Below are positions 12,246 through 28,052 of a stretch of DNA of 48,432 nt, piece after piece. Location: the IMG/VR virus record IMGVR_UViG_3300050195_000016, positions 1 to 48,432 of that record, one strand, 5' to 3'. Source of the DNA: a virus. The translations under genes and the position numbers were made by a program. How positions within the stretch are numbered: the first letter of the stretch is position 1; the number at the start of each line of letters is the position of its first letter. Below the pieces are notes generated by a model. It saw only the letters and a program-made list of their open reading frames with translations, did no database searches and was not told the DNA's origin.

Positions 12246-12482
12246 ATGGAAAGATTAAATACTCGTATAGTAGATGGAATAGAAGCACCTAACTGGGCTA
12301 AGTTTGTATCTAAATTTATTGGCACGCTTTACTTTGAAGAATATGAAGAGCAAATAATTGATGCTAAATACAAGGCTGTTGCAGTGGAATCAAAAACAAA
12401 CGTGTATAGTCGCGGTGACAATTTTGGGGTGGTTATATACTCTTTACCAGAATACAAAGCTTTTAAAGGAAACTTAGAATGA
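12246..12482 (+). CDS. Hypothetical 78-aa protein ending FKGNLE
   Basis: ORF whose 3' end carries the junction motif TTTAAAGGAAAC. Confidence 0.55.
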   Translation: MERLNTRIVDGIEAPNWAKFVSKFIGTLYFEEYEEQIIDAKYKAVAVESKTNVYSRGDNFGVVIYSLPEYKAFKGNLE

Positions 12483-12607
12483 AATACACAATCGTTCATC
12501 TAAAAGGTAAATCTGTGTTTTACAACTGTGTAGATGCATACGCTTTTATGCAGTATTTTAAATCTCTGGGCTACTGCCCTACAATTAAAAAGGAAATACC
12601 CAAATGA
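12479..12607 (+). CDS. Small hypothetical ORF (42 aa)
   Basis: Hand-translated as MKYTIVHLKGKSVFYNCVDAYAFMQYFKSLGYCPTIKKEIPK. It has an ATGA overlap with the upstream stop and an overlap with the downstream start. It is below the size cutoff of the ORF track. Confidence 0.4.
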   Translation: MKYTIVHLKGKSVFYNCVDAYAFMQYFKSLGYCPTIKKEIPK

Positions 12608-13434
12608 AAAAGCTTTATTCTATTGGAGCATTTATACTTCTATTTGCATTTTGTGCATTTAGCTCGTACTTCACTGTTGACCAAGGTGAGCGTGGTGTTG
12701 TTCTGCGTTTTGGTAAGATTAAAGAGGTGGCTAATGCTGGGCTTGGATTTAAGATGCCATTCTTTGATGATGTTAAGTACCTCGATGCAAAATCACAGGT
12801 AACTCGTATGTCACTTCCAGCATACTCTAAAGATCAACAGCCAGCTAATATGGTTGTGTCTGTTAACTGGCATGTTAGTGACTTTGCGAAAGCATACAGT
12901 GAGTATGGGGATCTTAAGAATCTATCTGACCGTGTTGTGTACACTAATGTTCCACAATCAGTTAAGACCGTGTTTGGACAGTTTGCAGCAGCTACGTCTA
13001 TCCAACAACGTGACAAATTGAATGTTGAGATTGCTAATGAAGTAGAGCGCACTATTCGTGGGCCTATTGTGATTGAATCAATCCAGTTAGATAACATTGA
13101 TTTCTCCTCAGCATATGAGCAATCAGTAGAAGCGCGTATGTTAGCAGAGGTTGAAGTTGCTAAGCTGCACCAAAATGCAGAACGTGAGAAGGTGCAAGCA
13201 CAGATTACCGTAACTCGTGCTCAAGCTGAGGCAGATGCTGTTAAGGCGTCAGCTAATGCAGAAGCAGCAGCTATCGCTATGAAGGGGAATGCAGAGGCAT
13301 CTGCATTAGAGGCTAAAGCTAAAGTTTTACGTGATAACCCTCTGTTGATTGACTATACTAAAGCTGATCACTGGAATGGTGCATTACCAAGCACCATGAT
13401 GGGTGGTGCAGTTCCTATGTTTAATGTTAAATAG
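12604..13434 (+). CDS. SPFH / band-7 (prohibitin, HflK/C-like) membrane protein
   Basis: N-terminal transmembrane helix, then FTVDQGERGVVLRFGKI...GLGFKMPFFD, typical of the SPFH domain, followed by an Ala/Glu-rich coiled coil. Confidence 0.8.
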   Translation: MKKLYSIGAFILLFAFCAFSSYFTVDQGERGVVLRFGKIKEVANAGLGFKMPFFDDVKYLDAKSQVTRMSLPAYSKDQQPANMVVSVNWHVSDFAKAYSEYGDLKNLSDRVVYTNVPQSVKTVFGQFAAATSIQQRDKLNVEIANEVERTIRGPIVIESIQLDNIDFSSAYEQSVEARMLAEVEVAKLHQNAEREKVQAQITVTRAQAEADAVKASANAEAAAIAMKGNAEASALEAKAKVLRDNPLLIDYTKADHWNGALPSTMMGGAVPMFNVK

Positions 13435-13443
13435 GGAAACTAT

Positions 13444-13692
13444 ATGAACAACAAAAAAGCAAAACTGATTCGTCGTCTGGCATTCCAACAAGCAGAAACA
13501 ATGGGCTTCACTGATGTTGGGTATGAAGTAGTTAATGTGGAAAAGAAATCATTCAAGAAATTGGATGGTACTTTGTTTCTGTATGAAACATACACTCGTA
13601 TTAACAAATTGAAAAGCCCTCGTGCTTTGTTTCTGCATAACAAACGCTCTATGAGTAAGAACCCACTGTTCAAACAAATGCAACGTGTGTAG
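13444..13692 (+). CDS. Hypothetical basic protein (82 aa)
   Basis: ORF with the RBS TAGGGAAAC upstream. Confidence 0.5.
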   Translation: MNNKKAKLIRRLAFQQAETMGFTDVGYEVVNVEKKSFKKLDGTLFLYETYTRINKLKSPRALFLHNKRSMSKNPLFKQMQRV

Positions 13693-13701
13693 GGGATAAT
13701 T

Positions 13702-13917
13702 ATGATTAAGACAACAAGAGAGCTGGTGGTACAAAGGTCAATTTGCTACCCTAAACTAATGATCGGTAAAAACAGTTCATCTGTAGTCTTGTTTATCAAA
13801 AAGGGGCATGGTGTGAGGCTTAGCCCAGATGGGCATGACTTTGGTGACTACGTATGTGACTGGGATATGGATTGTTTTGTAGATTATAATGGTAGTGTAA
13901 CTATCTCTAACAGTTAA
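13702..13917 (+). CDS. Hypothetical 71-aa protein, paralog of 12020..12235
   Basis: See 12020..12235. Confidence 0.65.
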   Translation: MIKTTRELVVQRSICYPKLMIGKNSSSVVLFIKKGHGVRLSPDGHDFGDYVCDWDMDCFVDYNGSVTISNS

Positions 13918-13928
13918 ATGGTATCATC

Positions 13929-14009: not shown

Positions 14010-14037
14010 TGTAATCCATTCTAAGCGTTTATAACCC

Positions 14038-14063: not shown

Positions 14064-14082
14064 TATTATAAATGCTTCTACG

Positions 14083-14111: not shown

Positions 14112-14129
14112 ACTCAATAGGAGATGCTA

Positions 14130-15368: not shown

Positions 15369-15528
15369 AGGAGCTCATTACTATTATCCAGCTAATAATT
15401 GTTTCTATAAGATAGGGAACAATGGGAAGCTTTATTTCTGGTCTGATGGTTGGTCTGTGTCCCTTATCACTGTTACTGACTTTCTTAAAGATGTATCTTA
15501 TGGGGAGGCATATGCGATACGACGGTAG
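15331..15528 (+). CDS. Small hypothetical protein (65 aa)
   Basis: GAGGAG lies upstream of the ATG. The ORF overlaps the end of the 412-aa ORF. Confidence 0.4.
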   Translation: MSSSLGAMSFIPKGAHYYYPANNCFYKIGNNGKLYFWSDGWSVSLITVTDFLKDVSYGEAYAIRR

Positions 15529-15706
15529 ATATAGATCAAAGGAGACTGGTCGGGATTACTTAGTAGACGGCCTAGACATATACTGGGTTCGGGAGCCTCC
15601 GGAAGAGACTGTACTCTCCAACTACACTAAGCATATTGATCACTTTATAGAAAAAGTGGCTAATGGTAAGATGGTTAAAATTCCTAATAAGTTTAGGGGG
15701 AACTAA
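15512..15706 (+). CDS. Small protein ending FRGN (64 aa from the internal ATG)
   Basis: GGGGAGG lies just upstream of the ATG at 15512. The longer track ORF from 15422 would overlap its neighbour by 107 nt. The 3' end carries the junction motif. Confidence 0.45.
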   Translation: MRYDGRYRSKETGRDYLVDGLDIYWVREPPEETVLSNYTKHIDHFIEKVANGKMVKIPNKFRGN

Positions 15707-15708
15707 TT

Positions 15709-16353
15709 ATGACTAAGGTTTATATCGTTAATAGTAGCTATGCATATGAACGTATGTATATTGAAGAAGGGTTTGAGCTAGTAGATAATGCAGATAAAGC
15801 AGGCCTGATCCAATTTACTGGTGGTGCAGATGTACATCCATCTTTGTATGGAGAACGTGATGTATACTCCTATCCAAATGCACGACGTGACTACGAAGAA
15901 ATGAAGATCTTCGAGAAGTACGCAGGTAAAAAGCCTATGGCTGGTGTTTGTCGTGGGGCGCAGTTCCTTTGTGTAGCTAATGGTGGTAAGTTGTGGCAAG
16001 ATGTGGATAACCATGCTATCTATGGGTTACATACAATGCTTGTTAAGGAGAGCATTGATGGTGAGTTTGCTAAAGAAGTGTATGTAACGTCCACACACCA
16101 TCAAGCAATGCGTTGTGTAGAAGAAGCTAATGGTATCATCATTGGTATTAGCGAACCACGTTCTAGTGAACGTTACGGGGAAACAGAAACAGTGTTAGGG
16201 CTTCGGGATGATGATGTAGAAGTTGCATTCTTCCCTAAAACTAAATGTTACTGTTTCCAACCTCACCCAGAAATGACAAGTAAAAACTCTGGATGCCGTT
16301 TAGAGTTCTTCTATGGACTTAAAACGTTCTTAGGGGTTGATCCTTATGCATAA
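15709..16353 (+). CDS. Class I glutamine amidotransferase-like / peptidase C26 (gamma-glutamyl hydrolase family)
   Basis: Nucleophile elbow GVCRGAQF, followed by THHQ and FQPHPE, which is the PuuD/C26-type triad pattern. Confidence 0.8.
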   Translation: MTKVYIVNSSYAYERMYIEEGFELVDNADKAGLIQFTGGADVHPSLYGERDVYSYPNARRDYEEMKIFEKYAGKKPMAGVCRGAQFLCVANGGKLWQDVDNHAIYGLHTMLVKESIDGEFAKEVYVTSTHHQAMRCVEEANGIIIGISEPRSSERYGETETVLGLRDDDVEVAFFPKTKCYCFQPHPEMTSKNSGCRLEFFYGLKTFLGVDPYA

Positions 16354-16564
16354 CTTCAAAACAGGGGATAGGGTTAAATGTATAAAAGACTTAGATAATA
16401 ATGAACTTGCTGTTGGTAAGATAGGTGTTGTAAAGGAGTCCTGGGATGATGGTGTAACTGTTAGGTTTTCTAGAAACGAGGTAAGGTACCCGTTCACTGA
16501 GTGGAACTTCTATGAAGATCCTATAGAAGATTACTTAATTCCAGTGGAGTTTAGGGGAAATTAA
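16346..16564 (+). CDS. Small GDRV...FRGN family protein (72 aa)
   Basis: Begins MHNFKTGDRVKC and ends EFRGN. The ATG at 16346 overlaps the upstream stop. Confidence 0.55.
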   Translation: MHNFKTGDRVKCIKDLDNNELAVGKIGVVKESWDDGVTVRFSRNEVRYPFTEWNFYEDPIEDYLIPVEFRGN

Positions 16565-16565
16565 T

Positions 16566-16997
16566 ATGAAAAATAAACTTAACTTTTGGATTGCTCTTGG
16601 GTTAATATTACTAATTTCACTTTCCTATAATATTATAAACAAGGAGAAAGTCCAATATCCGCCAACCAAAGTAACTGTTGTTGATAAGTTTGATGGGCCA
16701 CCACAACGTAGAGGTCGGGTAGACCAGTATATCACTTATGAGTGGACTGACTCTCAGGGACAACGCTGGGTGTACTCTAGTACAACAGGCCCAGTGGAGT
16801 TCCACAATACTAATATAGGGGGTACTATAGAATTAACAGTACCTAAAGCCTCGTTCTGGCTTGGTCGTGATGTTGGGCCTAGATACAAGCTATATAACCA
16901 AGTATATCCGGGAATTGTGTCTGATGGTGTTTCAGCTAGAGCCGGAATAGTTTTGATGGTTATTTGTTGGTCCTTACTTTTGGTACTTATTTTATAA
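16566..16997 (+). CDS. Membrane protein with N- and C-terminal transmembrane helices (143 aa)
   Basis: Hydrophobic segments FWIALGLILLISL and GIVLMVICWSLLLVLIL. Confidence 0.55.
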   Translation: MKNKLNFWIALGLILLISLSYNIINKEKVQYPPTKVTVVDKFDGPPQRRGRVDQYITYEWTDSQGQRWVYSSTTGPVEFHNTNIGGTIELTVPKASFWLGRDVGPRYKLYNQVYPGIVSDGVSARAGIVLMVICWSLLLVLIL

Positions 16998-17013
16998 TTT
17001 AAAGGAAATTAAT

Positions 17014-18177
17014 ATGTGTGGACTTGTTGGTGTTTACACCAAATTCGCTACTCAAAAAGATGTAGAAATCTTTGAGACTATGTTACAACTAGATGCCATC
17101 CGTGGTAAAGATAGTACAGGTGTTTGTATTGTTAAGAATGAAGATACATTCTTGATTAAGAAAACACTTCTACCTCAAGACCTGATGGATATGCGTCAGT
17201 ATAGTACCATTGTTAAAAATGGTGCTCAGTTATTAATGGGGCATAATCGTGCAGCTACTGCCGGCAAAGTTACCAGTAATAATGCTCACCCATTTGAGAC
17301 AGATAATGTTATTGGTGCTCATAATGGGACATTAGTATTGTGGCATAACCTGTATGAAGCTAATAAGTTCACTGTAGATAGTGAAGCCTTGTTACATCAT
17401 ATTAGTGTAAAAGGTATTGAAGATGCATGGTTAACTAAAGATGGTGCTACTGCATTAACTTACTTCCATAAACAAGAAAAAGCTTTATACCTCGTTCGTA
17501 ACAAAGAACGTCCATTGTTCACTTTAGAACAAGCTAACACTGTATATTATGCATCAGAAGCTTGGATGATCGCTGTAGCTTTACAGAAAGCCGGTGTTAA
17601 GGTCTCTGGTGAGATTAAAGAAGTACCGGAGAATATTGTGCATAAATATAAAGATGGTGTTTTAGAGGGAACATTCCCTGTAAAGGAGCCAGCTCCCTTT
17701 CGTACCTGTACAACTACGACGGGTGGTACGACTCCTACTAAAGTTAGTGTGGAAGAGAAAGGGAACCCAGTATACTTCATCGTAGATCGTCTTGTAACTT
17801 ACTGGGGAGGTGATTGTGTACGTGCAGAAGGTCACTCCACTAATAAATCAAAGACTCCTGTAACAGTTATTGTGGATAAGAAGGAGTATCCAGAGTTGTT
17901 TGAATTGTTCAGTTCTACAGAAGATATTCAATTCTATGGGAAGATATCTTCTAAGGTTAATGGTGGGTATTACGTAGACGTATACTCTGTTCTTGAGATT
18001 GTAGAGGGTGATGAAGATAGTGCCCCATTTGCATTAGCTGACAAGTCTCTGGTTCATTGTGCTTGGTGTGATGAAGTGTATGCTAAGCATGAGTGTGTAT
18101 CAGCAGGTGGTAATGAGTTTGTTTGTAAAGATTGTGCTAGTTTAGATGAAGTTAAATTATATATTAAGGAAGCTTAA
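17014..18177 (+). CDS. Class II (Ntn) glutamine amidotransferase-like protein with a C-terminal Cys-rich domain
   Basis: N-terminal MCGLVG (Cys2 nucleophile) plus GHNRAATAG...NAHPF. The C-terminus has CAWCDE...CKDC, a zinc-ribbon-like pattern. Confidence 0.8.
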   Translation: MCGLVGVYTKFATQKDVEIFETMLQLDAIRGKDSTGVCIVKNEDTFLIKKTLLPQDLMDMRQYSTIVKNGAQLLMGHNRAATAGKVTSNNAHPFETDNVIGAHNGTLVLWHNLYEANKFTVDSEALLHHISVKGIEDAWLTKDGATALTYFHKQEKALYLVRNKERPLFTLEQANTVYYASEAWMIAVALQKAGVKVSGEIKEVPENIVHKYKDGVLEGTFPVKEPAPFRTCTTTTGGTTPTKVSVEEKGNPVYFIVDRLVTYWGGDCVRAEGHSTNKSKTPVTVIVDKKEYPELFELFSSTEDIQFYGKISSKVNGGYYVDVYSVLEIVEGDEDSAPFALADKSLVHCAWCDEVYAKHECVSAGGNEFVCKDCASLDEVKLYIKEA

Positions 18178-18178
18178 A

Positions 18179-18973: not shown

Positions 18974-19211
18974 ACCAGACTGGGGAGAAACACTAGAACT
19001 ATGCACCAGCGTTTTCAGGGATGAAAAAGACAAGAACTTATTCTATTTGGTACTTTTTGAAGAAGTAAAATCTGAATATGGAAACCTTGTAGTATTCGCT
19101 AAAAACTCTAATGAATGTGTGTGTGCAATGCCAGTAAAAGAGTTTTACGAAGGGCTTATTCCTGCTACAGAAGAAGAAGTGCAACGATTGTCAGAGGAGG
19201 GGTTTTTGTGA
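18966..19211 (+). CDS. Hypothetical protein (81 aa)
   Basis: ORF overlapping the upstream stop. Confidence 0.5.
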   Translation: MFEPDWGETLELCTSVFRDEKDKNLFYLVLFEEVKSEYGNLVVFAKNSNECVCAMPVKEFYEGLIPATEEEVQRLSEEGFL

Positions 19212-19291
19212 AATTTAAAATTGGGGATAGAGTTACTTATAATGACTTTGGTAGCCCAGTTAAACCTATAGTAGAATTTAAGGGAAATTGA
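19208..19291 (+). CDS. Mini-ORF (27 aa, GTG start), a truncated GDRV...FKGN family member
   Basis: Hand-translated as (M)KFKIGDRVTYNDFGSPVKPIVEFKGN. GAGGAGGGG lies upstream and the GTG overlaps the upstream TGA. Confidence 0.4.
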   Translation: MKFKIGDRVTYNDFGSPVKPIVEFKGN

Positions 19292-19292
19292 T

Positions 19293-20039
19293 ATGAAAAC
19301 TATGATGTATGCTTATAAGATGGGTAGTCAAGGTGCTAAAGCTTTAGCTGGTGCTATGGGTATTAAACGCATTCTGCATAATGGTACAGCTAAACTTAAT
19401 GTAGATGTGTTGATTAACTGGGGATCTGGGAGTCTACCAGCTCGTGTTAATGCTAAACGTGTCCTCAATAACCCAGAAGCTGTTACATTGTCTGCAAACA
19501 AGCTGAAAGCATTTGTAGCGATGAAGGACACTGGATGCACAGTAGACTATACCAGTAGTAAAGAAATTGCTCTACGTTGGATTGAGGAAGGTTCTACAGT
19601 GGTTTGTCGTACCATCCTTAATGGACATTCAGGAAATGGTATCATCATTGCTGAAAAAGCTGATGAGTTAGTTGATGCCCCATTGTACACAAAGTACTTT
19701 AATAAGAAAGAAGAATATCGAGTTCACGTCTTCAATGGTGAAATGTTGTATGCTCAACGTAAAGCACGTAAACGTGAAGTACCAGATGATAAAGTTAACT
19801 GGAAAGTACGTAACCATGATAATGGATTTATCTTCCAGTTGAATGGTTTTGTTCTACCAGAAGTGTGTAAAGATGTCGCTATCAAGGCAGTTAAAGCATT
19901 AGGTCTTGATTTTGGGGCTGTTGATGTTGGATATACCAATGGAGTTGCTAAGGTGTTTGAAGTTAACACAGCTCCGGGTCTTACAGGTACATCTATCGAG
20001 CTGTACAAAGACGCTGTAAACAACTTTATTGGGGGGTAG
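19293..20039 (+). CDS. ATP-grasp ligase (RimK-like)
   Basis: YRVHVF, KVRNHDNG and GAVDVG...FEVNTAPGL, the pattern of an ATP-grasp C-terminal domain. Confidence 0.8.
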   Translation: MKTMMYAYKMGSQGAKALAGAMGIKRILHNGTAKLNVDVLINWGSGSLPARVNAKRVLNNPEAVTLSANKLKAFVAMKDTGCTVDYTSSKEIALRWIEEGSTVVCRTILNGHSGNGIIIAEKADELVDAPLYTKYFNKKEEYRVHVFNGEMLYAQRKARKREVPDDKVNWKVRNHDNGFIFQLNGFVLPEVCKDVAIKAVKALGLDFGAVDVGYTNGVAKVFEVNTAPGLTGTSIELYKDAVNNFIGG

Positions 20040-20042
20040 GGT

Positions 20043-20237
20043 ATGTCTGATATTAAAGCTGGAGATAGAGTTGTTGTAGTAAGTAGCAGGAAAGAGATTT
20101 TAATTGGTGGTATTTTTGAAGTATTAAAGGTTGATGGTACTTCTGTTAAATTAGATATCTCTAATTTATACGGGCAGTCATATTGGACTACAACTAAAGA
20201 CCGTGTTAAAAAGGTTTGTGTGTTTAGGGGGAACTAG
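20043..20237 (+). CDS. Small GDRV...FRGN family protein (64 aa)
   Basis: Begins MSDIKAGDRVVVV and ends VFRGN. Confidence 0.55.
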   Translation: MSDIKAGDRVVVVSSRKEILIGGIFEVLKVDGTSVKLDISNLYGQSYWTTTKDRVKKVCVFRGN

Positions 20238-20238
20238 T

Positions 20239-20469
20239 ATGTGCACTATTAAGTTAAGTAGTAAAGTTAGGTTAAACCCAGATAAGGTGCACTATAACCT
20301 TAAACACCAACTTAATAACAATATAGGTGAAATAGTAAGGATTACCAGAGGTGGTCCACACAAAAGACCTGTTACCTACACGGTTACTTGGGATTACTTG
20401 GGGGAGAGGTTTACTAATTTTTACGGTGAAGAAGCTTTAATCTTGTATAAACCTTTTAAGGGGAACTAA
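20239..20469 (+). CDS. Small protein ending LILYKPFKGN (76 aa), paralog of 20911..21126
   Basis: The ATG at 20239 follows the junction motif. Its C-terminus EEALILYKPFKGN matches EEDLILYKSFKGN. Confidence 0.55.
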   Translation: MCTIKLSSKVRLNPDKVHYNLKHQLNNNIGEIVRITRGGPHKRPVTYTVTWDYLGERFTNFYGEEALILYKPFKGN

Positions 20470-20921
20470 TGGACTTAGCAGAAGATTATAAAGCTAATTA
20501 CAAAAAATGGGTTAAGCTAGCTAATTGGCGTGTAGATAGTTTCTGGGCTGAGGATGTAGTACAGGAAACTTATGAACGTGCATTACGTTGGTATAAACCG
20601 GAGACAGTGTTGAGCTTTGATGCATGGATGATGTCTACCTTCAAGTCTGTTTGTGCTAAATATTTAGCCATCTCAATGGGAAGATACACTGACATTGATG
20701 AAGAGGAAATTGAAGACGCTGCTAATACAGCTAGTGCAGAGATTGCTGAGGAATTTATCCATCGTACTAAAGGAATGCGTGAAGACCATCAACACATTTT
20801 ATATTGTTCTCTAATTCTTGGTATGCGTGACTTAGAGATTATTAAAGCTACTGGTGTATCTGGTGCAAATATCCGTAAGATACGTAGTAGATTTATTAAG
20901 GAGACTAATAGTGGAATTTAA
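20469..20921 (+). CDS. ECF-like sigma factor (putative)
   Basis: 150 aa. Region-2-like AEDVVQETYERALRWY and a region-4-like helix-turn-helix, LEIIKATGVSGANIRKIRSRF. Confidence 0.6.
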   Translation: MDLAEDYKANYKKWVKLANWRVDSFWAEDVVQETYERALRWYKPETVLSFDAWMMSTFKSVCAKYLAISMGRYTDIDEEEIEDAANTASAEIAEEFIHRTKGMREDHQHILYCSLILGMRDLEIIKATGVSGANIRKIRSRFIKETNSGI

Positions 20922-21126
20922 AGAAGGGGATAAAGTAAAATTAAGTAAAGATAGTCGCTTTTACTGCAATTCCCCATACCAATTAGGGGATAATATAGGG
21001 GTTGTGCTTGTAGCACTTCCGGGTTATCTAGGGGTAGGCTGGATTGATAAAAATACAGAGAATGAAAAAAGAAACTCTTATTGGGAAGAAGATTTAATCC
21101 TATACAAATCTTTTAAAGGAAACTGA
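20911..21126 (+). CDS. Small GDKV...FKGN family protein (71 aa, GTG start)
   Basis: AAGGAG lies 8 nt upstream of the GTG at 20911. Begins (M)EFKEGDKVKL and ends YKSFKGN. Confidence 0.5.
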   Translation: MEFKEGDKVKLSKDSRFYCNSPYQLGDNIGVVLVALPGYLGVGWIDKNTENEKRNSYWEEDLILYKSFKGN

Positions 21127-21127
21127 T

Positions 21128-21373
21128 ATGTCTAGAAGTTTTAAAAAAGTGGTTGGATATAAAGACAATAATAACAAAGTATATAAAAAGCATTCTAATA
21201 AAGTAGCACGTAAAGATATGGAATTACAGGACGGTATGCAGTATAAACGTAATGACCTGTCATGGGACATTTGTGACTGGAAGATTATGCTGCATACTGA
21301 CACAGATATTATTAAGTGGATTACCCGTAGCCGCCCGTTCTTCCGGCCTCTACATAAACTATATACCAAATAA
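21128..21373 (+). CDS. Hypothetical basic protein (81 aa)
   Basis: ORF after a junction motif, Lys/Arg-rich. Confidence 0.5.
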   Translation: MSRSFKKVVGYKDNNNKVYKKHSNKVARKDMELQDGMQYKRNDLSWDICDWKIMLHTDTDIIKWITRSRPFFRPLHKLYTK

Positions 21374-21385
21374 TGGAGGTGGTAG

Positions 21386-21946
21386 ATGAAATGCTTCTAT
21401 CTAAAGCAGGACTTTAACCAACGTATAGTTGGAGGGCTCTGTAAAGCTCGTGGTGAAGTTGTGTTCATCACTAGGTACACAGATGAAGGGTTCAGAGGTG
21501 TAACACTGCTACAGCAGGAACTAGGCGGTATTAAGCCAGATGAGTTAGATGTATCCCCCTTACCACTAGGCAATGTATTTTTGGGTAAGTCATATGTATA
21601 TACATCAATGTGTCCAGCTCGTCAATACAAGCAGACACTGAATAACGAGACTTTTGTCTCACATAGAATGCCGTGGGAGTGTAAGAACATCACACTAGAG
21701 ACGCCTGCATTGTTGAGAACAATCTCTAATACATTCATGTCTGCTGTTGACGCATTCAAAATTGTTCTAGCTGGAGGTGCTACAGCTATTCCATTCAGTC
21801 GTGAATTTGGTGTTGCTAAAGTAAATGAATCATTTAATGTAGTATACAAAGACGAACTGGTAGGAAGTGTTACAAAAGTTGGTGTGTCTTTATTTCCTAA
21901 TAAATTTTATCTTAAAGAATCTCTGGAGGAAGCTCTTAATGGCTAA
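21386..21946 (+). CDS. Hypothetical protein (186 aa)
   Basis: ORF overlapping the start of the amidoligase gene by 8 nt. Confidence 0.55.
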   Translation: MKCFYLKQDFNQRIVGGLCKARGEVVFITRYTDEGFRGVTLLQQELGGIKPDELDVSPLPLGNVFLGKSYVYTSMCPARQYKQTLNNETFVSHRMPWECKNITLETPALLRTISNTFMSAVDAFKIVLAGGATAIPFSREFGVAKVNESFNVVYKDELVGSVTKVGVSLFPNKFYLKESLEEALNG

Positions 21947-22721
21947 AACAATTAAAGAGTTGTTGGGTCTTCCTAACAATTACAAAGATGTATACGGCGT
22001 TGAGTTTGAGATTGAGTACAAACGTGGGGTGGAATTTAAGAGAGCCCCAGAAGGGTGGAGCGTAGACCCTGATGAACATTCTATCCGTAATGGTCTTGAG
22101 TATGTTATGGACCGACCAGAGGACTTAATTAGTGTCCGCAGAACTATTGATAAATTCTCTGAAGTAGTGCCAACAGACATTGTTAATGACAATGGATACG
22201 CAGGAACACATGTACATTGTAATGTGTCAGACTTAACTAAGAACCAATTATTCAATTTTATTCTCACCTATCTGTCTATGGAGAATGTATTAAGCAAACG
22301 TTTCTTTGGGGAAGACCGAGAAGGAAGTTTGTTCTGTCTACGTTTATCTGATGCAGACTACTTAGAGAAAATCCTACGTCGTGTAGTAGTAGAAGATAAT
22401 TTACGTTTGTTAGAGCAGGAGAATATTCGTTATTGTAGTTTGAACGTTCTATCTCTGTTTAAATATGGAACATTAGAGTTCCGTGGTCTACGTGGTGATG
22501 GTGATTATGAACGTGTCAAAGATTGGATTGTTGTTATTCATGCACTTAAAGAGTTCTCACGAAAAGTAGAAGATCCAATTGCATTGCTTACTCTGTCTTC
22601 TAAAACTGCTGGGGAATTTGCAAAAGAAATCCTACCAGACCTATCTAAAGAAGAGCAGCAGGAAGTGTATCGTGGTGTGAGACGTGTACAAGGTATTGCG
22701 TTTGAAGGTTCATGGGAATAG
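21939..22721 (+). CDS. Putative amidoligase (Amidoligase_2-like, glutamine synthetase fold)
   Basis: Begins MAKTIKELLG, with YGVEFEIEY, GLEYV, GTHVHCNV and GTLEFRGL. GGAGGA lies 8 nt upstream of the ATG at 21939. Confidence 0.65.
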   Translation: MAKTIKELLGLPNNYKDVYGVEFEIEYKRGVEFKRAPEGWSVDPDEHSIRNGLEYVMDRPEDLISVRRTIDKFSEVVPTDIVNDNGYAGTHVHCNVSDLTKNQLFNFILTYLSMENVLSKRFFGEDREGSLFCLRLSDADYLEKILRRVVVEDNLRLLEQENIRYCSLNVLSLFKYGTLEFRGLRGDGDYERVKDWIVVIHALKEFSRKVEDPIALLTLSSKTAGEFAKEILPDLSKEEQQEVYRGVRRVQGIAFEGSWE

Positions 22722-22748: not shown

Positions 22749-22943
22749 ATGTCACAAAATATTGATTTTACCACTCTAGACTATACACCACCAATTGGAG
22801 CCAAGTATATAGATTGGTTCGGCGGTTATTGGAAAGTGGTTGGAACTCACTATCTTAAATGGGAAAGATATACAAACAGGTGGACAGTTAAATCGTACAT
22901 CCCTCGTGGTCTACGTGATATTAATGTGTTTAAGGGGAATTAG
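22749..22943 (+). CDS. Small protein ending VFKGN (64 aa)
   Basis: ORF with AAGGAG upstream and the junction motif at its 3' end. Confidence 0.55.
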   Translation: MSQNIDFTTLDYTPPIGAKYIDWFGGYWKVVGTHYLKWERYTNRWTVKSYIPRGLRDINVFKGN

Positions 22944-22945
22944 TA

Positions 22946-23158
22946 ATGGAAGAATATACACATGTGTTAATTCACGTAATAACTGAAACTCAGTGGTTTA
23001 TTAGATTTGTTGGTAATAATGCTTACTGGAGAAGTAAAAACAGTGATGAGACTGGTGTGTTCCCCTTATTTGGCACAGTAGAGCAGTATAAATTAAAGGT
23101 GGAACCACAGGGGTTTAAACTAACTAAACTAAATACTGTAAAGTTCAGGGGTAATTAA
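22946..23158 (+). CDS. Small protein ending KFRGN (70 aa), tandem paralog of 23162..23371
   Basis: EYTHVLIHV...WFIRFVGNNAYW compared with EYTHKLIVE...WLMRFSGGNVEW. Confidence 0.6.
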   Translation: MEEYTHVLIHVITETQWFIRFVGNNAYWRSKNSDETGVFPLFGTVEQYKLKVEPQGFKLTKLNTVKFRGN

Positions 23159-23161
23159 TAG

Positions 23162-23371
23162 ATGAGTGAATATACACACAAGTTAATAGTTGAGGGAGAT
23201 GAGTGGCTTATGCGGTTTTCAGGGGGTAATGTAGAATGGATACATGTTAGTTCTGGGAAGATTGGTGTTACCCGAGGTAGCTATACTTCTGTTGAGGACT
23301 GTTATAAAGAGATGTTTAAAAGTAGAGGATCCTCACTTAAACTAATTAAAAATACATTTAAAGGAAACTAA
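23162..23371 (+). CDS. Small protein ending TFKGN (69 aa), tandem paralog of 22946..23158
   Basis: See 22946..23158. Confidence 0.6.
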   Translation: MSEYTHKLIVEGDEWLMRFSGGNVEWIHVSSGKIGVTRGSYTSVEDCYKEMFKSRGSSLKLIKNTFKGN

Positions 23372-23372
23372 A

Positions 23373-23645
23373 ATGGGAGTGTGGTCTTATATACATGGGA
23401 ACGTTTCTCTCCCAAAGAAGGAACATGTATCAATTGAAAAAGCTGTACGCTGCTACTTCCGTCAATCAGAGAAGTTTAAACTAACTAAAATAACTGAGAA
23501 TGAACACTACCATTTCGTGCATATTAGCTTTAATGTAGATGAATCTGGCTGCTCTGTAGCAGATAATTTACAATTGCTATTAACTTCTCTGGACGGACTT
23601 GGCTGTAAATACGATTTGGAGGTGTCATTACGCTACCTTAATTAA
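23373..23645 (+). CDS. Hypothetical protein (90 aa)
   Basis: ORF after a junction motif. Confidence 0.5.
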   Translation: MGVWSYIHGNVSLPKKEHVSIEKAVRCYFRQSEKFKLTKITENEHYHFVHISFNVDESGCSVADNLQLLLTSLDGLGCKYDLEVSLRYLN

Positions 23646-23653
23646 GGAGCCGT

Positions 23654-24619
23654 ATGGCAGGTGATTGTGTAGAAAAGATGGGGCATTCCTGTGGTACTCA
23701 CCAAGGACTGCAAGTGTTTCTAAATGAGGATGGTACATACTCAGGATTCTGTTTTAGTTGTAATAAGTATGTAGCAGATCCATATAAAGATAAACCAAAG
23801 GGGTATAAGCCAGTAGCAGTTAAGAAGACTGCTGAAGAAATCGAAGCAGAGATTGCAGAGATTAAAGACATGGGCACTCAGGATATTCCTGAGAGAATGT
23901 TAATGAAGAAGTATTTAGAATACTTTGGAGTGAAGGTTGGTTATGACGAGAGGGTAGCTGGTAAGGTTAACTTTATGGCATTCCCTTATAATCAAGGGAA
24001 AGGTTTTAAATGTAATCTACTATCTCCTAAGAAGTTCTGGTCAGTTGGTGATGCATCTGGTTCTGACTTCTTCGGTCTTGACAAAGCTCTACAAACAGGT
24101 GCTAAGCGTTTATATATTACTGAAGGCGAGAAGGATGCGGTTACTCTTTTCCAAGTAATGAAAGAGAGTAATAACAACCCTAAGTTTGCAGACTTTAATC
24201 CAGCAGTAGTAAGTCTTCCTCATGGTATTGCCTCTGCTACAGCAGATATCTCCACTAAGATTGAAGTGTTTCGTAAGCACTTTAAAGAAATTGTATTAGT
24301 GTTTGATATGGACGCTCCGGGACGTGCTGGAGCAGCTGATGTATGCAGGGTGTACCCAGACTTTCTTTCTGTAGACCTACCAGCTAAAGATCCTAATGAA
24401 TGCTTAATGCAAGGATTCAAGAAGGGTTTGTTTAATGCTGTTATGTTTAATGCAGAAAAACCAAAGAACTCCCGTTTAGTATTTGGGAGTTCATTACGTG
24501 AGTCTGCAATGAAAGCGCCTGAATGGGGATTGTCTTGGCCTTGGCAAGGTCTTACAGACCTCACTCGTGGTATTCGTAGAGGAGAGACTTACTACCTAGG
24601 CGCTGGCGTTAAAATGGGT
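23654..24619 (+). CDS. Primase-helicase (T7 gp4-like), exon 1
   Basis: Zinc-finger-like HSCGT...CFSCNKY, and TOPRIM motifs LYITEGEKDA and VFDMDAPGR. The exon ends inside Walker A (GAGVKMG|). The extra residues QLIVSY-stop in the track ORF are intron sequence. Confidence 0.8.
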
Positions 24620-25392
24620 CAACTTATTGTTAGTTATTAACAAATTAGCTCATTTAAAATTCCTTTAATTGCTGGGAGGTCCCTTTGGGATAATCAGCAG
24701 CCAAGATCCTGCAACCTTTATAAAACAGGAGAGTTGATGAAACATATCCAAATAGAAGGTTGTGAACACTACTCTATTAATGAATTAGGTGTAGTTGTAA
24801 ACACTAAGACAGGTCTGGTGTTGAAGCCGGACATTAATAGTGCTGGGTACCAGAGAGTTACTCTTTGGAATGGGAAGTATACAAGAGTTTTTGTACATAG
24901 GCTTGTAGCTACTCATTTTGTGGATAACCCAAATCAGTACCCTATAGTTAATCATATTGATGGGAATAAGCTTAATAACCACTACTCTAACTTAGAGTGG
25001 TGCACAGCAAGCTACAATGTTAAAGATGGATTTAACAGAGGACGTGTTAGTAAAGGAAGCCCCGGAGTACCAGCCGTAAACAGGTCGTTAACTGATGAAC
25101 AAGTTAGGTTAATTAGAGAACTAAGAAAAATTGGCTGGGTTAGAAAAGACATACTCGCACTTGTTAATTGCAGTGTTGATGTATACAAAAGGGTTTTTAA
25201 ATATTATAAGCACGTAGTCTAATCAATTTGGTTGCAGGATAAGGTTCAACGACTAGTCGAAAGACGTAGGGCTAAGCGGCTCGAAACGGGGAACTCCCTA
25301 TTGGGATGAAGATATAGTCTGGTCTGCATAGCAATATGCAGCAGTTCATAAGAGAACGGGGGTGGAACTAGCGAGACGCCTCGAACAACACG
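24620..25392 (+). mobile_element. Group I intron (773 nt) carrying a homing endonuclease ORF
   Basis: The exon 1 end AAAUGGGU can pair with GCUCAUUU (24648-24655), giving a P1 helix with U.G at the splice site. The intron ends in G at 25392. Splicing restores GAGVKMG-KSELV. The core segments AATTGCTGG, AATCAGCAGC and GATGAAGATATAGTCTG are shared with the polymerase intron. Confidence 0.75.
24737..25222 (+). CDS. HNH homing endonuclease (HNH_3/I-HmuI-like with a NUMOD4-like N-terminus)
   Basis: YSINELGVV, GYQRVTL, VHRLVA..F and NHIDGNKLNNHYSNLEW. AGGAG lies 5 nt upstream of the ATG at 24737. The ORF sits inside the intron. Confidence 0.8.
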   Translation: MKHIQIEGCEHYSINELGVVVNTKTGLVLKPDINSAGYQRVTLWNGKYTRVFVHRLVATHFVDNPNQYPIVNHIDGNKLNNHYSNLEWCTASYNVKDGFNRGRVSKGSPGVPAVNRSLTDEQVRLIRELRKIGWVRKDILALVNCSVDVYKRVFKYYKHVV

Positions 25393-26076
25393 AAGAGTGA
25401 ATTAGTTAACGCATTAGCTGCTCACATGATCACTGAACACGATCTCCCAGTATTTATGGCTAAGCCTGAAGAAGCTATTGCTAAGACCTACCAAATGTTA
25501 GTTGGTAAAGTGGCTGGTAAAATCTTCCATGACCCTAAGATTCCATTCGATATGAATGCTTTCTTGGAGGCAGAGAAGAAGGTCGGGGATAAGGCCATTA
25601 TCCTTGATGCATACCAGTTTGTAGATTGGGATACATTGAAAGCAGACACTAAGTATGCAGTTGTGTCTGAAGGGGTTAAGGATGTGTTCTATGATCCAAT
25701 CACTTGCTTTACTAATAATATGGGGGCAGCGGAGGCTAACGAGTTTCTAATGGAGATGACAGCAGAACTATCTGCTATGTCTAAGGATTTAAACTTTACT
25801 TCTTACATCTTCTGCCATCTTAAAGCCCCACAACAAGGACCAACACATGAACGTGGTGGTGAAGTGTTATCAACACAGTTTGCTGGTAGTAGAGCTATGA
25901 TGCGTAGTTGTAACATGATGCTTGGATTACAGGGAAATAAAGACCCTTCCCTCTCCCCTGAGCAACGTAATATGCGTAAGCTTGTTCTATTAGAAGATCG
26001 TGAGTTTGGTAATGTTGGAGGCATTGACTTGTATTGGAATAACCAAACTGGTTTATTCACTGAGATTAAATCATAG
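25393..26076 (+). CDS. Primase-helicase (T7 gp4-like), exon 2
   Basis: The frame is open from 25372. KSELVNALAAH completes Walker A. The spliced protein is about 549 aa, comparable to T7 gp4. Confidence 0.75.
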   Translation, partial: KSELVNALAAHMITEHDLPVFMAKPEEAIAKTYQMLVGKVAGKIFHDPKIPFDMNAFLEAEKKVGDKAIILDAYQFVDWDTLKADTKYAVVSEGVKDVFYDPITCFTNNMGAAEANEFLMEMTAELSAMSKDLNFTSYIFCHLKAPQQGPTHERGGEVLSTQFAGSRAMMRSCNMMLGLQGNKDPSLSPEQRNMRKLVLLEDREFGNVGGIDLYWNNQTGLFTEIKS

Positions 26077-26083
26077 GAGAATT

Positions 26084-26860
26084 ATGGAAGACATTATACA
26101 AAAACAGAGACTCACTGCACAGAAGGTGCTAGACCAGCTACGTCTCATTGATCCTGCTGCAATTCTAGCTGGTGGGGCAGTGCGTAATTGGTTTATGGGT
26201 AAGCCAGCAGTAGACCTTGATTTCTATATGTTTATAGATGGCAACCATTTATCACACGCTAATACAAAAGCTTTACTAGAACGTATATTAGATACTGACT
26301 TAGCTGCATTAGGGGCAATTCAACCTAATGTCAATGTCGAAGCTGCATTAGGTGATGAGGGGATTATCAAAGAGGGACGCATCTTTGCTCTAAAACCGGC
26401 ACCTATTCCTGTTGTAGATGAAGTGTACCAAGGAATGAACAAACTTAAATGGGTGTTCGAAGGAGTTGTTGATGGTATTAAAATAAACATAATGCTAATG
26501 AAAGTATCTACGTATAACCAGAATGACTGTGTTGGTGCATTCGGGGCAACTATCAGCAGATTCTGGAGCAGCAACCCAATTAGGGAAGAGCGTGATATTT
26601 ATCTTCGTGAGGCTGTGTTATCCGCTTGTCTAAAACATGTTTACCTAACCAATAACATAGGGAAGAAATACAAAGATAAAATTACTAAATATTTTCCACA
26701 CTTCACTTTTACTGAACTTAATGGTGAAGTTGATCCAACGGAGCTCTTACTTAAAGAGTATGAAGAGAAGTTCGGCGATAACGACATAGCATGGCTAGGC
26801 TTTACTGAAGAAAATATTAAATTAGCTAAACGTAATATGGTGCGATTTATGGGGAATTAA
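26084..26860 (+). CDS. Nucleotidyltransferase (Pol-beta superfamily, CCA-adding-enzyme/poly(A) polymerase head-domain-like)
   Basis: ILAGGAVRNWFMGKPAVDLDF matches the GGxVR[DN]...G....DxD motif. AGGAG lies upstream of the ATG at 26084. The longer track ORF from 26000 overlaps the helicase gene. Confidence 0.6.
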   Translation: MEDIIQKQRLTAQKVLDQLRLIDPAAILAGGAVRNWFMGKPAVDLDFYMFIDGNHLSHANTKALLERILDTDLAALGAIQPNVNVEAALGDEGIIKEGRIFALKPAPIPVVDEVYQGMNKLKWVFEGVVDGIKINIMLMKVSTYNQNDCVGAFGATISRFWSSNPIREERDIYLREAVLSACLKHVYLTNNIGKKYKDKITKYFPHFTFTELNGEVDPTELLLKEYEEKFGDNDIAWLGFTEENIKLAKRNMVRFMGN

Positions 26861-28052
26861 TGGATAGATGGTGTGTATTCGACGTTGAAGCTAATGGGCT
26901 TAATCCAGATAGGTTACATTGTCTAGCTGTCAATTACTTGATGAAGAACCTCACTTGTACTGATAGCTATGACAATATGCGTAAACTACTCTCTGATAAA
27001 ACCCTAGTATTAATAGGACATAACATCTACCGTTTTGATATCCCTGTTCTTGAGAAGTTGTTAGGTATTAAGATTGAATGCAAGCTTATAGACACTTTAT
27101 TTCTATCTTGGTACTTATTCCCAGATAGGCTTAGACATGGCTTAGCAGATTGGGGGGAAGACTTCGGTGTTCCTAAACCCCCTATAGATGATTGGGAAGG
27201 GCTCTCTGTAGAAGAGTATATGCATCGCTGTAAAGAGGATGTTAAAATAAATACACTCCTATGGGAGCTACAGTGGAAACGTCTCCTAGAGCTTTATGGA
27301 AGTCCTGAAGAGGCTAATCGTCTTATAGACTACTTAATGTTTAAAGCAGATTGTGCGAGAGAACAAGAACGTAGTAGATGGCTATTAGATAGAGTTAAGT
27401 GTGAGGAGGAACTTAAAAAGCTTGATGATGAGTTTAACACCTTAACAGAGAAGGTTAAGCAGATAATGCCTAAAGTCCCTGTTGTTAAGAAAGCTAAACC
27501 ACCAGAGAAAATGTACAGCAAGGTTACTGGCAAGTTAACTAAGGCCGGAGAAGCTTGGCATGAGAAGCTAAGAAAACAAGGTAAGCAGTTAGATTGGCCA
27601 TTTGAGATTGAGTACATAGCTAGTTATAAAGAACCCAACCCAGGCTCTGTTCCACAACTTAAAGAGTGGCTATTCTCCCTTGGATGGGAACCTGACGTTT
27701 ACAAATTTGAGAGAAATAAAGAGACAAATGAGTTTAGACAGATTCCTCAGATTAACAAGTCTAAACTTGATGGTGGTGGTCTTAGTAACTCTGTTAAGGA
27801 ATTGTATGATAAAGAACCAAAGCTGGAATACTTAGATGGTTACTTTGTTGTTAGGCATCGTAAGGGTATTCTAAATGGGTTCTTACGTGATGTGGATGAA
27901 GATGGTTATCTTAGGGCTAGGATAAGTGGACTAACTAATACACTTAGATTTATTCATTCTGAGTTAGTTAATCTACCAAAGGAAGACCGTATCAGAGGAT
28001 GCTTAATTGCCCCTGAAGGGTATGAACTTTGTGGGTCAGATCAATGCGCCCT
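26860..28052 (+). CDS. Family A DNA polymerase (T7 gp5-like), exon 1
   Basis: Exo I motif VFDVEANGL. The exon ends inside motif A (CGSDQCAL|). The residues NISGALIGDN-stop in the track ORF are intron sequence. The boundary is uncertain by 1 nt. Confidence 0.8.

Follow-up and report, generated by a model that had tools for sequence, protein, structure and literature searches.

A repeated gene-junction motif that ends one protein and may couple it to the next in a Zobellviridae-like podophage

In ordinary translational coupling, the Shine-Dalgarno (SD) sequence of a cistron lies inside the 3' end of the cistron upstream, with TAATG or ATGA overlaps such as those of the trp operon and of many phage operons. 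The ribosome-binding site (RBS) regions of early genes in phage T4 are acted on by the translational repressor RegA, whose sites are poorly conserved, and by the endoribonuclease RegB, whose site is GGAG. T4-like phages also carry mobile small-gene cassettes bounded by repeats, for example those flanked by PeSLs. The closest analogue of the repeat described here is found in the Cluster K mycobacteriophages, whose Start-Associated Sequences (SAS; Pope et al. 2011, PMC3203893) were still without an explained function in 2025 (PMC12699233).

The phage examined is a novel, marine-type, Zobellviridae-like podophage, and the whole stretch of DNA analysed, 48,432 nt in length, is referred to as the window. 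The 15-nt motif TTTARRGGRAAYTRR occurs exactly nine times in the window against 0.01 expected, and 100 dinucleotide shuffles gave a maximum of one. All 12 coordinates listed in the initial annotation carry the motif, nine exactly and three as variants with one or two mismatches, always on the + strand and with an ATG 0 to 4 nt downstream (Table 1). The variants have TTA at the stop position (12462), TTC..GGT (23144) and ATG as codon 2 (26846). The copies had been described as serving twice, as the last codons of one ORF and as SD and spacer of the next, and this holds up, although the statement that all but one spell four last codons and a stop is slightly too strong: the exact ending F-[K/R/M]-G-N-stop is found in ten ORFs, while the one at 12462 lacks a direct stop and runs on to FKGNLE. 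The exception named, at 16998, is indeed non-coding and directly follows, in frame, the stop codon of the preceding gene. The ORF closed at 19277 exists too, but it is merely a mini-ORF with a GTG start at 19208 and the SD GAGGAGG, left uncalled by a public gene caller. The variant reported before the capsid gene on the minus strand is real (809 to 792) and out of frame, and the ORF downstream of it matches a major head protein family.

When 75 gene starts were scored, the 12 sites formed a discrete class at 14-20 bits; four starts are intermediate at 9-12 bits and the others reach at most 6.4 bits. Conservation is confined to positions 1-17 of the motif, information being ~0 outside, and neither a conserved fold around the copies nor a -10/-35-type partner element at any distance from them was found.

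Table 1. Motif copies, relaxed copies and tail-bearing genes in the window
Feature	Coordinates	Strand	Remarks
Relaxed copy TTTAAGGAAAAGTAA-ATG	792..809	-	frame 3; upstream stop is TAA inside TTTAAG; precedes major capsid gene
Relaxed copy GTTAAAGGAGATTAGttaATG	6954..6974	-	precedes large terminase gene; 9.3 bits
Relaxed copy TACAGGGGGAATT-ATG	11137..11152	+	intergenic, upstream of 11150-11524; 12.1 bits
Relaxed copy TTTAAGGATAATTAAaATG	11520..11538	+	out of frame (frame 3); upstream stop is TAA inside TTTAAG; RBS of 11536-11790; 11.5 bits
Chimeric ORF	12246..12482	+	unrelated N-terminal part (phrog_36788), family-A-derived C-terminal pieces
Motif TTTAAAGGAAACTTAgaATG	12462..12481	+	ends 12246-12482 as FKGNLE* (TGA overlaps ATG); RBS of 12479-12607
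Unrelated ORF	15422..15706	+	94 aa, with tail
Motif TTTAGGGGGAACTAAttATG	15692..15711	+	ends 15422-15706 (FRGN*); RBS of Peptidase_C26-like gene 15709-16353
Family-A SH3-like gene	16346..16564	+	72 aa, tail ...IPVEFRGN
Motif TTTAGGGGAAATTAAtATG	16550..16568	+	ends 16346-16564; RBS of 16566-16997
Motif TTTAAAGGAAATTAAtATG, perfect, non-coding	16998..17016	+	after TAA of 16566-16997; RBS of amidotransferase gene 17014-18177
Family-A remnant	19208..19291	+	27 aa, internal deletion; N-terminal FKIGDRV and C-terminal tail retained; E=2e-4
Motif TTTAAGGGAAATTGAtATG	19277..19295	+	ends 19208-19291; RBS of ATP-grasp gene 19293-20039
Family-A SH3-like gene	20043..20237	+	64 aa
Motif TTTAGGGGGAACTAGtATG	20223..20241	+	ends 20043-20237; RBS of 20239-20469
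Family-A SH3-like gene	20239..20469	+	76 aa
Motif TTTAAGGGGAACTAATG	20455..20471	+	stop overlaps start; ends 20239-20469; RBS of sigma-like gene 20469-20921
Family-A SH3-like gene	20911..21126	+	71 aa, GTG start; AF2 model: 5-stranded barrel, tail (residues 65-71) outside fold
Motif TTTAAAGGAAACTGAtATG	21112..21130	+	ends 20911-21126; RBS of 21128-21373; identical in relative L010
Unrelated ORF	22749..22943	+	64 aa, with tail
Motif TTTAAGGGGAATTAGtaATG	22929..22948	+	ends 22749-22943; RBS of 22946-23158
Tandem family-B pair	22946..23371	+	22946-23158 and 23162-23371; beta4-alpha-beta fold, disordered tail; shares only the FxGN tail with family A
Variant TTCAGGGGTAATTAAtagATG	23144..23164	+	ends 22946-23158; RBS of 23162-23371
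Motif TTTAAAGGAAACTAAaATG	23357..23375	+	ends 23162-23371; RBS of 23373-23645
Nucleotidyltransferase-like gene	26084..26860	+	258 aa, with tail; L007 orthologue 36% identical, ends VRFRGNL
Variant TTTATGGGGAATTAATG	26846..26862	+	ends 26084-26860 (FMGN*); RBS of DNA polymerase exon 1; L007 orthologous junction is TTTAGAGGTAATTTATGATG

At 11 of the 12 sites the gap from stop to start is -4 to +3 nt, against -17 to +299 nt at other junctions, which fits the translational coupling already suggested for these copies. The idea of an optimised or enhancer RBS did not survive: spacing from SD to start is normal, and predicted SD:anti-SD pairing is of ordinary strength, -7.0 kcal/mol for the motif genes and -6.8 kcal/mol for the others (P=0.5). 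Because the SD is no stronger than average, translation strength alone fails to explain the conservation of 15 nt. Neither the TTT nor the AAY-T of the motif is able to pair with a canonical 16S rRNA 3' tail, and both are retained in the non-coding and out-of-frame copies.

Codon choice in the tail is skewed. Glycine is encoded by GGR at 10 of 11 sites (background 0.42, P=1e-3), arginine by AGG at all four (background 0.14, P=4e-4) and phenylalanine by TTT at 10 of 11 (P=0.02); residue 2 is K, R or M here and E in homologues, with a purine as third codon base throughout. Taken with the perfect non-coding copy and the two relaxed out-of-frame copies, this preference for SD-compatible synonyms indicates that the RNA sequence is under selection, at the nucleotide level. 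Frame is a separate matter. Locking to one frame is not generic: of 120 cases in which the word occurs once in an unrelated sequence, just 23 read as FKGN*, 45 being in frame 3 and 46 non-coding. In the window, the same tail closes four unrelated protein groups and is in frame in every one; for the four groups outside family A, all in frame 1, we put the chance at about 0.31^4 = 0.009 by our own arithmetic.

The source of the tail, which the initial annotation missed, can be followed through the family-A genes, whose fold matches the SH3/KOW/L21e-like class, weakly and at fold level only. The window holds four full copies, one remnant and one chimera of this family, against zero or one in relatives, and positions 12452-12474 of the chimeric ORF are identical at 22 of 23 nt to 21102-21124 in the tail of the last full copy. 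Predicted structures place the tail outside the fold both here and in the unrelated family B. A profile search recovered distant family-A homologues in other Zobellviridae-like phages, ending in FKGNK or FEGNE; their DNA reads TTY-RAR-GGR-AAY plus one or two codons, and the stop overlaps the ATG that follows (L131, twice; L134; L137, twice; L138). Extensions of one or two residues take the forms FKGNLE, FKGNV, FRGNL, FKGNK and FKGNIK, and about half of the family-A homologues with a single domain have no tail. Judged from these sequences, the tail was not invented in this genome but is the ancestral C-terminus of a family of small SH3-like proteins, in which F-[K/E]-G-N-x-stop overlaps the ATG of the following gene. 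As for the concern that the motif might be at chance level or lacking in relatives, only the latter applies, and only in part: the class is absent from relatives at 43-56% polymerase identity, but the two closest, L010 and L007, retain it at orthologous junctions.

On balance, we read the motif as a cis-acting, dual-coded gene-junction module that derives from the 3' end of the SH3-like family and is used for coupling. The module would be carried on a long early/replication mRNA, and no strong + strand terminator was found between 11819 and 28 kb. In its coding role it gives the upstream small ORF a C-terminal tail, predicted to be disordered, of Phe-(Lys/Arg/Met)-Gly-Asn-stop; to the next ribosome it offers a purine core (AAGGGG or AAAGGA) that is an SD of ordinary strength, mostly 4-7 nt before the ATG, with AAY-TRR as an A/U-rich spacer. 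This arrangement puts the upstream stop so close to the next start that terminating ribosomes could re-initiate there, with no trans-acting factor presumably needed. The 15-nt consensus would then be the intersection of both codes, and variation in the motif falls almost wholly on codon sites where the change is synonymous or conservative, with purine retained within the SD. Historically, the family multiplied by duplication in this lineage, and copies degenerated or were joined to adjacent ORFs, the final 15 nt probably being retained throughout because the next gene needs them. As an example of dual coding we find it elegant rather than revolutionary.

It is conceivable, though rather unlikely, that the peptide comes first, F-x-G-N at or near the C-terminus being a portable linear motif of unrelated early proteins (a docking tag, a degron or a termination-context signal) with SD-like coding as a by-product. 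Phenylalanine is always TTY and asparagine always AAY, never leucine or lysine, in the 11 coding copies and in every homologue DNA read (L007, L131, L132, L134, L135, L137 and L138), all coding copies are frame-locked against a background that is not, and a disordered appendage on two different folds is usual for linear motifs. FKGNK is retained in L132/L133 and L135/L136 although the next gene has its own SD past the stop, and the nucleotidyltransferase tail persists down to 36% identity; together these give a hint of constraint on the tail peptide itself. On the other hand, residue 2 swaps charge (K/R/M/E), the codons favour SD-compatible synonyms, non-coding and out-of-frame copies exist, and about half of the single-domain homologues do without the tail. 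The extra residues after some tails mean that a free Asn carboxylate is not required, and we know of no F-x-G-N C-terminal linear motif.

We consider it improbable that the motif serves as operator for a trans-acting phage or host factor, either an RNA-binding protein or a small RNA, which would read the flanks together with the SD and switch some 12-16 early/replication cistrons on or off, much as RegA and RegB of T4 act at early RBSs. Such a reader would suit a discrete class with no continuum, limited to the non-structural block and the capsid and terminase genes and missing at 43-56% polymerase identity, in which unpaired TTT and AAYT are conserved around a merely average SD. These properties are common to the SAS, for which the same idea was left open (PMC3203893), and the fold class of family A often contacts RNA. 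However, the intersection of coding and SD already predicts the observed degeneracy, making an extra reader unnecessary, and no RNA-binding regulator or nuclease is recognisable among the scanned proteins of the block. Other phages have the tail/RBS arrangement singly or paired, where a regulon makes little sense, and the sole anti-motif detected (24651-24671) lies inside an intron-like HNH cassette.

The recombination seam proposed in the initial annotation finds partial support as history and none as function. The motif bounds each of the tandem paralogues (20043/20239; 22946/23162; the run 22749-23373), a deletion remnant retains both gene ends, a tail was grafted onto another ORF, and in L010 the body of gene 20911 is a hot-spot of divergence with identical sequence on either side. 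That the 15-bp identity was selected so that small-gene cassettes could duplicate, delete or be exchanged within or between phages deserves little credence, since 15 bp offers little length for homologous exchange, most family-A genes lack a motif at their 5' side and so are not flanked on both, and recombination between repeats is an expected consequence, not proof of selection for it. A DNA-level signal, either a promoter element such as a GGAAC-type -35 of the sigma-like protein or a stoperator-type operator, can practically be dismissed: a Sigma70_r2-like gene lies within the block, GGAAC is present in 6 of 12 copies and all are co-oriented with transcription, but there is no second conserved element, sigma-70-like promoter matches are not enriched (43 against 61 expected), transcripts begun downstream of a motif locked at RBS distance would lack the RBS, and 12 promoters in 14 kb, one per small-gene junction, are implausible.

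Compared with ordinary coupling junctions, those described here likewise embed an SD of average strength and normal spacing in the last codons of the preceding gene, with the stop a few nt from the next ATG. The part common to ordinary junctions is only the SD of 4-6 nt, whereas here 15 nt, frame and tetrapeptide recur at a dozen junctions and in unrelated genes. As with the T4 RegA and RegB targets, early-gene initiation regions have in common a short signal, rich in A/U and purines, that overlaps the RBS, but the T4 sites are different and no homologue of RegA or RegB turned up among the scanned proteins. As in PeSL-type cassettes, small accessory genes are multiplied and relocated between conserved genes, and a short conserved boundary doubles as an expression signal; here the boundary is a translated RBS/stop module where the T4-like cassettes have a promoter stem-loop, it is confined to the 3' end, and the moves seen are within one genome. 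The likeness to the SAS goes furthest: both are short asymmetric repeats (13 nt there, 15 nt here) in about a dozen or more copies of one orientation, a few nt upstream of start codons that are nearly always ATG, lineage-specific and lying mainly in the half of the genome that holds the non-structural genes, with an SD core between conserved flanks unable to pair with 16S rRNA and sometimes with the upstream stop within the repeat. The sequences are unrelated (0 matches to GGGATAGGAGCCC at up to 2 mismatches), as are the phage families and presumably the hosts, and no ESAS-type inverted repeat was found here. Unlike the SAS, the present repeat is almost always translated, in a single frame, as a protein tail, and its origin can be traced to one particular family of SH3-like genes, of which it forms the C-terminal end.

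The junction motif, a repeat of about 15 nt read as Phe-(Lys/Arg/Met)-Gly-Asn-stop in the upstream gene and serving as ribosome-binding site (RBS) of the next, is real at all 12 plus-strand sites reported by the initial annotation. Nine are exact copies of TTTARRGGRAAYTRR, all on the plus strand, against 0.01 expected, which rules out chance or base composition as the source, and the other three are variants with one or two mismatches. An ATG follows every copy after 0-4 nt, and all 12 starts are ATG. F-[K/R/M]-G-N-stop forms the exact end of 10 ORFs; at site 12462 (sites are named by motif start) TTA stands in place of the stop and the protein ends in FKGNLE-stop, and site 16998 is a non-coding copy in frame directly behind a TAA. 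Site 19277 closes only a 27-aa mini-ORF, with a GTG start and a strong Shine-Dalgarno (SD) sequence, GAGGAGG. The variant proposed ahead of the capsid gene is also genuine, with a match of its downstream ORF to the major head protein family. Both here and at 11520, the TAA within TTTAAG is the stop of the upstream gene, which leaves the motif out of frame.

A matrix built from the 12 sites and applied to all 75 gene starts of the window identified them as a discrete class (14-20 bits), followed by four intermediate starts of 9-12 bits (those of 11150, of 11536 and of the capsid and terminase genes), with the remaining starts at or below 6.4 bits. The 12 strict and four relaxed copies are each co-oriented with their gene, and all strict copies lie within the plus-strand replication block. 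Information content is limited to motif positions 1-17, and neither conserved secondary structure around the motif (z-scores near 0) nor a second conserved box or partner element near it was found. Pairs of start-upstream regions with at least 13 of 15 bases in common number 27 of 2775 in the window versus 0-2 in each relative. Word counting also flagged TAATGCATTA and (TA)n, which were dismissed as noise or AT-rich intergenic tracts.

The window is a near-complete podophage genome of 48.4 kb, with a large terminase ~60-65% identical to those of Zobellviridae and CW02/CVT22/Vibrio 1.235.O-type phages. Searches of IMG/VR, JGI metagenomes and a 5.8-billion-protein set with the polymerase, the amidotransferase and one family-A protein (see below) returned only two close relatives: P0002/L007 (8.3 kb), whose polymerase is the nearest found at 64% identity, and L010, a 927-bp contig of ~95% nucleotide identity. 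No DNA-level relative was found among GenBank phages and no homologue of the amidotransferase above 35% identity; a single Logan contig showed the phage, and by these comparisons it is an isolated lineage. Small tail-bearing genes are interspersed among its amidotransferase/amidoligase module.

Coordinates of features in the window
Feature	Coordinates	Strand	Remarks
Portal, large terminase, tailspike, 1549-aa internal virion protein, tubular-tail protein		minus	
tRNA-Ile, anticodon TAT	1581-1671	minus	between scaffold-like gene and next structural gene
Early/replication block	~10.3 to 34.5 kb	plus	
Terminator-like hairpin	11797-11819	plus	10-bp stem
Hairpin and ensuing ~80-nt (TA)n-rich tract	11797-11900		separates first early genes from motif-bearing block; may hold a promoter or origin
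Second pair of 71-aa paralogues	12020-12235; 13702-13917	plus	44% identity; without junction motif; share 16-nt repeat AATGGTATCATCATG downstream, with further copies at 16129 and 19635
SPFH/Band 7 domain protein	12604-13434	plus	Pfam E=1e-32; among early genes; unusual podophage cargo
Glutamine amidotransferase/amidoligase module	15709-22721	plus	common to other Zobellviridae; Peptidase_C26 15709, GATase_6 17014, COOH-NH2 ligase 18179, RimK-like ATP-grasp 19293, Amidoligase_2 21939
Sigma70_r2 domain protein, 150 aa	20469-20921	plus	at threshold (24.3 bits vs 24-bit cut-off); probably a phage sigma factor; same gene adjoins polymerase in relatives L008 and L009
Family-A gene body, divergence hot-spot	20911-21126		L010 377-592; flanks 97-100% DNA identity
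Primase/helicase parts	23654-24640; 25426-26076		phrog_239 positions 49-370; 382-599
Cassette between primase/helicase parts	24641-25425	plus	
Anti-motif, single	24651-24671	plus	in 5' gap of HNH cassette
HNH_3 gene of cassette	24737-25222		
Group I intron match, sub-threshold Rfam	25101-25341		35.8 bits, E=2.5e-7 (921-nt search)
3' part of cassette	~25237-25430		80-94% DNA identity to phage HNH/homing-endonuclease loci
Family-A DNA polymerase exon ORFs	26860-28086; 28386-28994		
Group I intron, Rfam RF00028	28043-28299	plus	85.5 bits

The replication block also carries intervening elements. The group I intron splits the DNA polymerase gene, and the corresponding position in L007 is occupied by an HNH_3 ORF. 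The cassette that splits the primase/helicase gene has the look of a mobile intron/HNH element that travels widely, and the loci matching its 3' part (match coordinates are query-relative) belong to T4-like, Klebsiella, Providencia, Acinetobacter and Pectobacterium phages. The anti-motif in this cassette, ...AAATTCCTTTAA..., is the reverse complement of TTAAAGGAATTT and adjoins a hairpin, GCTGGGAGGTCCCTTTGGGATAATCAGCAGC; it could sequester an RBS or belong to the intron fold.

A close examination of the motif as a translation signal upheld its dual use, as coding tail and as SD of the next gene, and not the suggestion that it is an optimised RBS. The purine core lies mostly 4-7 nt from the ATG, with a predicted pairing of -5.5 to -9.3 kcal/mol with the canonical anti-SD, from which the host's own may differ. 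SD-dependent translational coupling junctions have a purine-rich anti-SD complement ~5-9 nt before the start, and a stop that overlaps the start or stands a few nt from it. The motif resembles them in both respects, with stop-to-start distances of -4 to +3 nt at 11 of the 12 sites, the twelfth being the non-coding copy with its 16-nt gap. Distances at other junctions in the block run from -17 to +299 nt, and the only strong plus-strand terminator is upstream of the motif-bearing genes. Mean SD pairing of the class is -7.0 kcal/mol versus -6.8 kcal/mol at the other 63 starts (P=0.5), and many ordinary starts of the window reach -9 to -16 kcal/mol; a "super-RBS" was rejected on this average pairing.

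Codon choice in the motif is shifted from the phage's own usage toward SD-compatible synonyms, with Gly as GGR in 10 of 11 copies (background 0.42, P=1e-3), Arg as AGG in four of four (0.14, P=4e-4) and Phe as TTT in 10 of 11 (0.56, P=0.02), in tests whose sites include paralogues and thus lack full independence. This skew, together with the non-coding and out-of-frame copies, shows selection on the nucleotides themselves.

Four of the motif-bearing genes (16346, 20043, 20239 and 20911, named by ORF start) form a weakly similar family, here called A (26-35% identity), which is unnamed in Pfam and whose defining features are FKxGD(K/R)V at the N-terminus and a five-stranded barrel picked up by a family profile. 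The profile recovered these four (E 1e-8 to 1e-26) and a remnant, 19208 (E 2e-4), and did not match 15422, 22749, 22946, 23162 or 26084. The AlphaFold model, a confident one (pLDDT 87.8), is a five-stranded SH3-like barrel whose last strand extends to residue 64, the tail (residues 65-71) being coil; the Foldseek matches, L21e, NdhS and the KOW domain of NusG, are all weak and hold at the level of the fold only. Among 1.8 billion representative proteins, a profile search found ~100 distant homologues. Several single-domain ones end in ...FKGNK or ...FEGNE and come from contigs of other Zobellviridae-like phages, some beside the same amidoligase genes. On the homologue contigs L131 (twice), L134, L137 (twice) and L138, TTY-RAR-GGR-AAY is followed by one or two codons and a stop overlapping the next ATG, and L132/L133 and L135/L136 retain the peptide FKGNK even with a separate SD, TAGGAG, behind the stop for the next gene. 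Tail residue 2 is K, R, M or E, with a purine always as third codon base, Phe is always TTY and Asn always AAY. The same tail design thus occurs in homologues of other phages, so the dual-coded tail is an old trait of family-A genes.

Sampled relatives carry no family-A domain or one, none with the tail. In the window there are four full copies, the remnant mini-ORF 19208 (27 aa), which retains only the two gene ends, and a chimera, ORF 12246. The final 23 nt of 12246 agree with the tail of 20911 at 22 of 23 positions, the N-terminal parts of the two proteins being unrelated. The tail is also borne by four groups outside family A, namely 15422, 22749, the tandem pair 22946-23158/23162-23371 (family B) and the nucleotidyltransferase-like 26084. 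Family B has a different fold, beta4-alpha-beta, with a disordered tail. Pure paralogy was rejected, as the tail is borne by proteins of five unrelated groups and its four residues are all that families A and B have in common. Grafting as the source of the tail likeness between 15422 and 20043 was also rejected, with only 10 of 18 nt matching upstream of the motif. The L007 orthologue of the nucleotidyltransferase, at 36% identity, ends in VRFRGNL with a junction of the same geometry, so this copy is old and maintained. Junction 21112 is identical in L010 and the window, and the family-A gene body upstream of it has 75% amino acid identity. This body is a local divergence hot-spot, which suggests diversifying selection or allele exchange.

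Outside this lineage, at least 119 unrelated IMG/VR contigs carry a single copy of the exact word TTTAAAGGAAAYTRRNATG, and one further contig carries two. Upstream of 120 such single-copy occurrences the sequence is non-coding in 46, an ORF ends at the internal TAA (frame 3) in 45, the word is read as FKGN-stop (frame 1) in 23, and frame 2 is used in six. None of these occurrences has a family-A upstream ORF, so outside the window the word is no more than a generic RBS; it is a generic good junction, and the strict frame-locking in the window phage does not arise as a generic by-product. The initial annotation had tied its case to enrichment and to conservation at orthologous junctions: the enrichment and the junctions kept in L007 and L010 bear it out, whereas relatives at 43-56% polymerase identity have ordinary GGAG-type SDs and ATGA overlaps, without the motif class.

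The simplest account, in our view, is a cis-acting junction module whose consensus would satisfy two codes at once, F-x-G-N-stop as a short disordered tail and an SD plus spacer for the next cistron. Such an intersection predicts the degeneracy, with variation almost only at synonymous or conservative sites and purines within the SD. Inherited from the SH3-like family, the module would then have gained copies through duplication, and the reliance of the next gene on it would have preserved it through the decay or replacement of gene bodies. Three observations are not fully covered by this account: all non-family-A copies are in frame, untranslated copies still have TTT and AAY, and FKGNK is kept where it is not the SD. 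Two rivals are therefore retained as live. The tail peptide itself may have a function, or a trans-acting factor may read the motif RNA, an idea left open for the Start-Associated Sequences (SAS) of Cluster K mycobacteriophages. A joint reading, which we consider rather unlikely, makes the 15-mer a portable cassette that combines a C-terminal F-x-G-N degron or docking tag, or an RNA operator, with the RBS of the next gene; the regulator in the operator version would possibly be the SH3/KOW-like family-A proteins carrying the 15-mer. The initial observation is confirmed, and its interpretation partly supported.

The two-code module is a clean natural case of a protein tail and a translation-initiation signal in one 15-nt unit, which has spread to unrelated genes within a compact phage operon. 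An RBS can in this way impose a common peptide on many proteins, a caveat for function inferred from conserved C-terminal motifs. The data also document how, among Zobellviridae-like phages, a family of SH3-like small genes has been amplified in one lineage. Should there be a trans-acting reader or a function of the peptide, the motif would mark a new phage early-gene regulon; the portable cassette, if true, would place about a dozen early proteins under common regulation and serve as a tractable model for SAS, which are still unexplained.

Several known systems were compared with the motif. Rfam matches in the window are only the group I intron and the tRNA, elsewhere than the motif, and an ECF/sigma-70-type promoter (two hexamers at fixed spacing) or operator was rejected, with no partner element and no enrichment of promoter-like matches. 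Programmed frameshifting or readthrough was rejected because the motif lacks slippery codons and the downstream frame varies from site to site (+1 at eight sites, -1 at three, 0 at one). A prfB-type +1 shift in particular needs a shift-prone P-site codon able to re-pair in +1 (such as CUU U) ~3 nt after an SD-like element, and here the P-site codon AAY abuts the SD directly and cannot re-pair on AYU.

The closest published analogue is the Cluster K SAS, with consensus GGGATAGGAGCCC, of which ~10-20 co-oriented copies lie a few nt before the mostly ATG starts of non-structural genes and combine an SD core with strongly conserved flanks unable to pair with the 16S rRNA 3' end (PMC3203893). Our motif is not SAS by sequence, as the window has no match to GGGATAGGAGCCC at up to two mismatches. 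Like SAS, it has about a dozen co-oriented copies a few nt before ATG in a non-structural (replication) block, and its conserved TTT and AAYT fall outside the region of pairing, assuming a canonical anti-SD in the host. About half of the SAS copies have an extended SAS (ESAS), 17-bp imperfect inverted repeats just upstream (PMC3203893); unlike SAS, the window motif is without ESAS, with no information upstream of position 1 and no associated inverted repeats. SAS are still unexplained (PMC12699233). The motif is an SAS-like junction with dual coding and predicted translational coupling, and it provides a second, independent system of this kind outside mycobacteriophages, in which the evolutionary origin of the repeat can be followed and the rival mechanisms can be separated by recoding.
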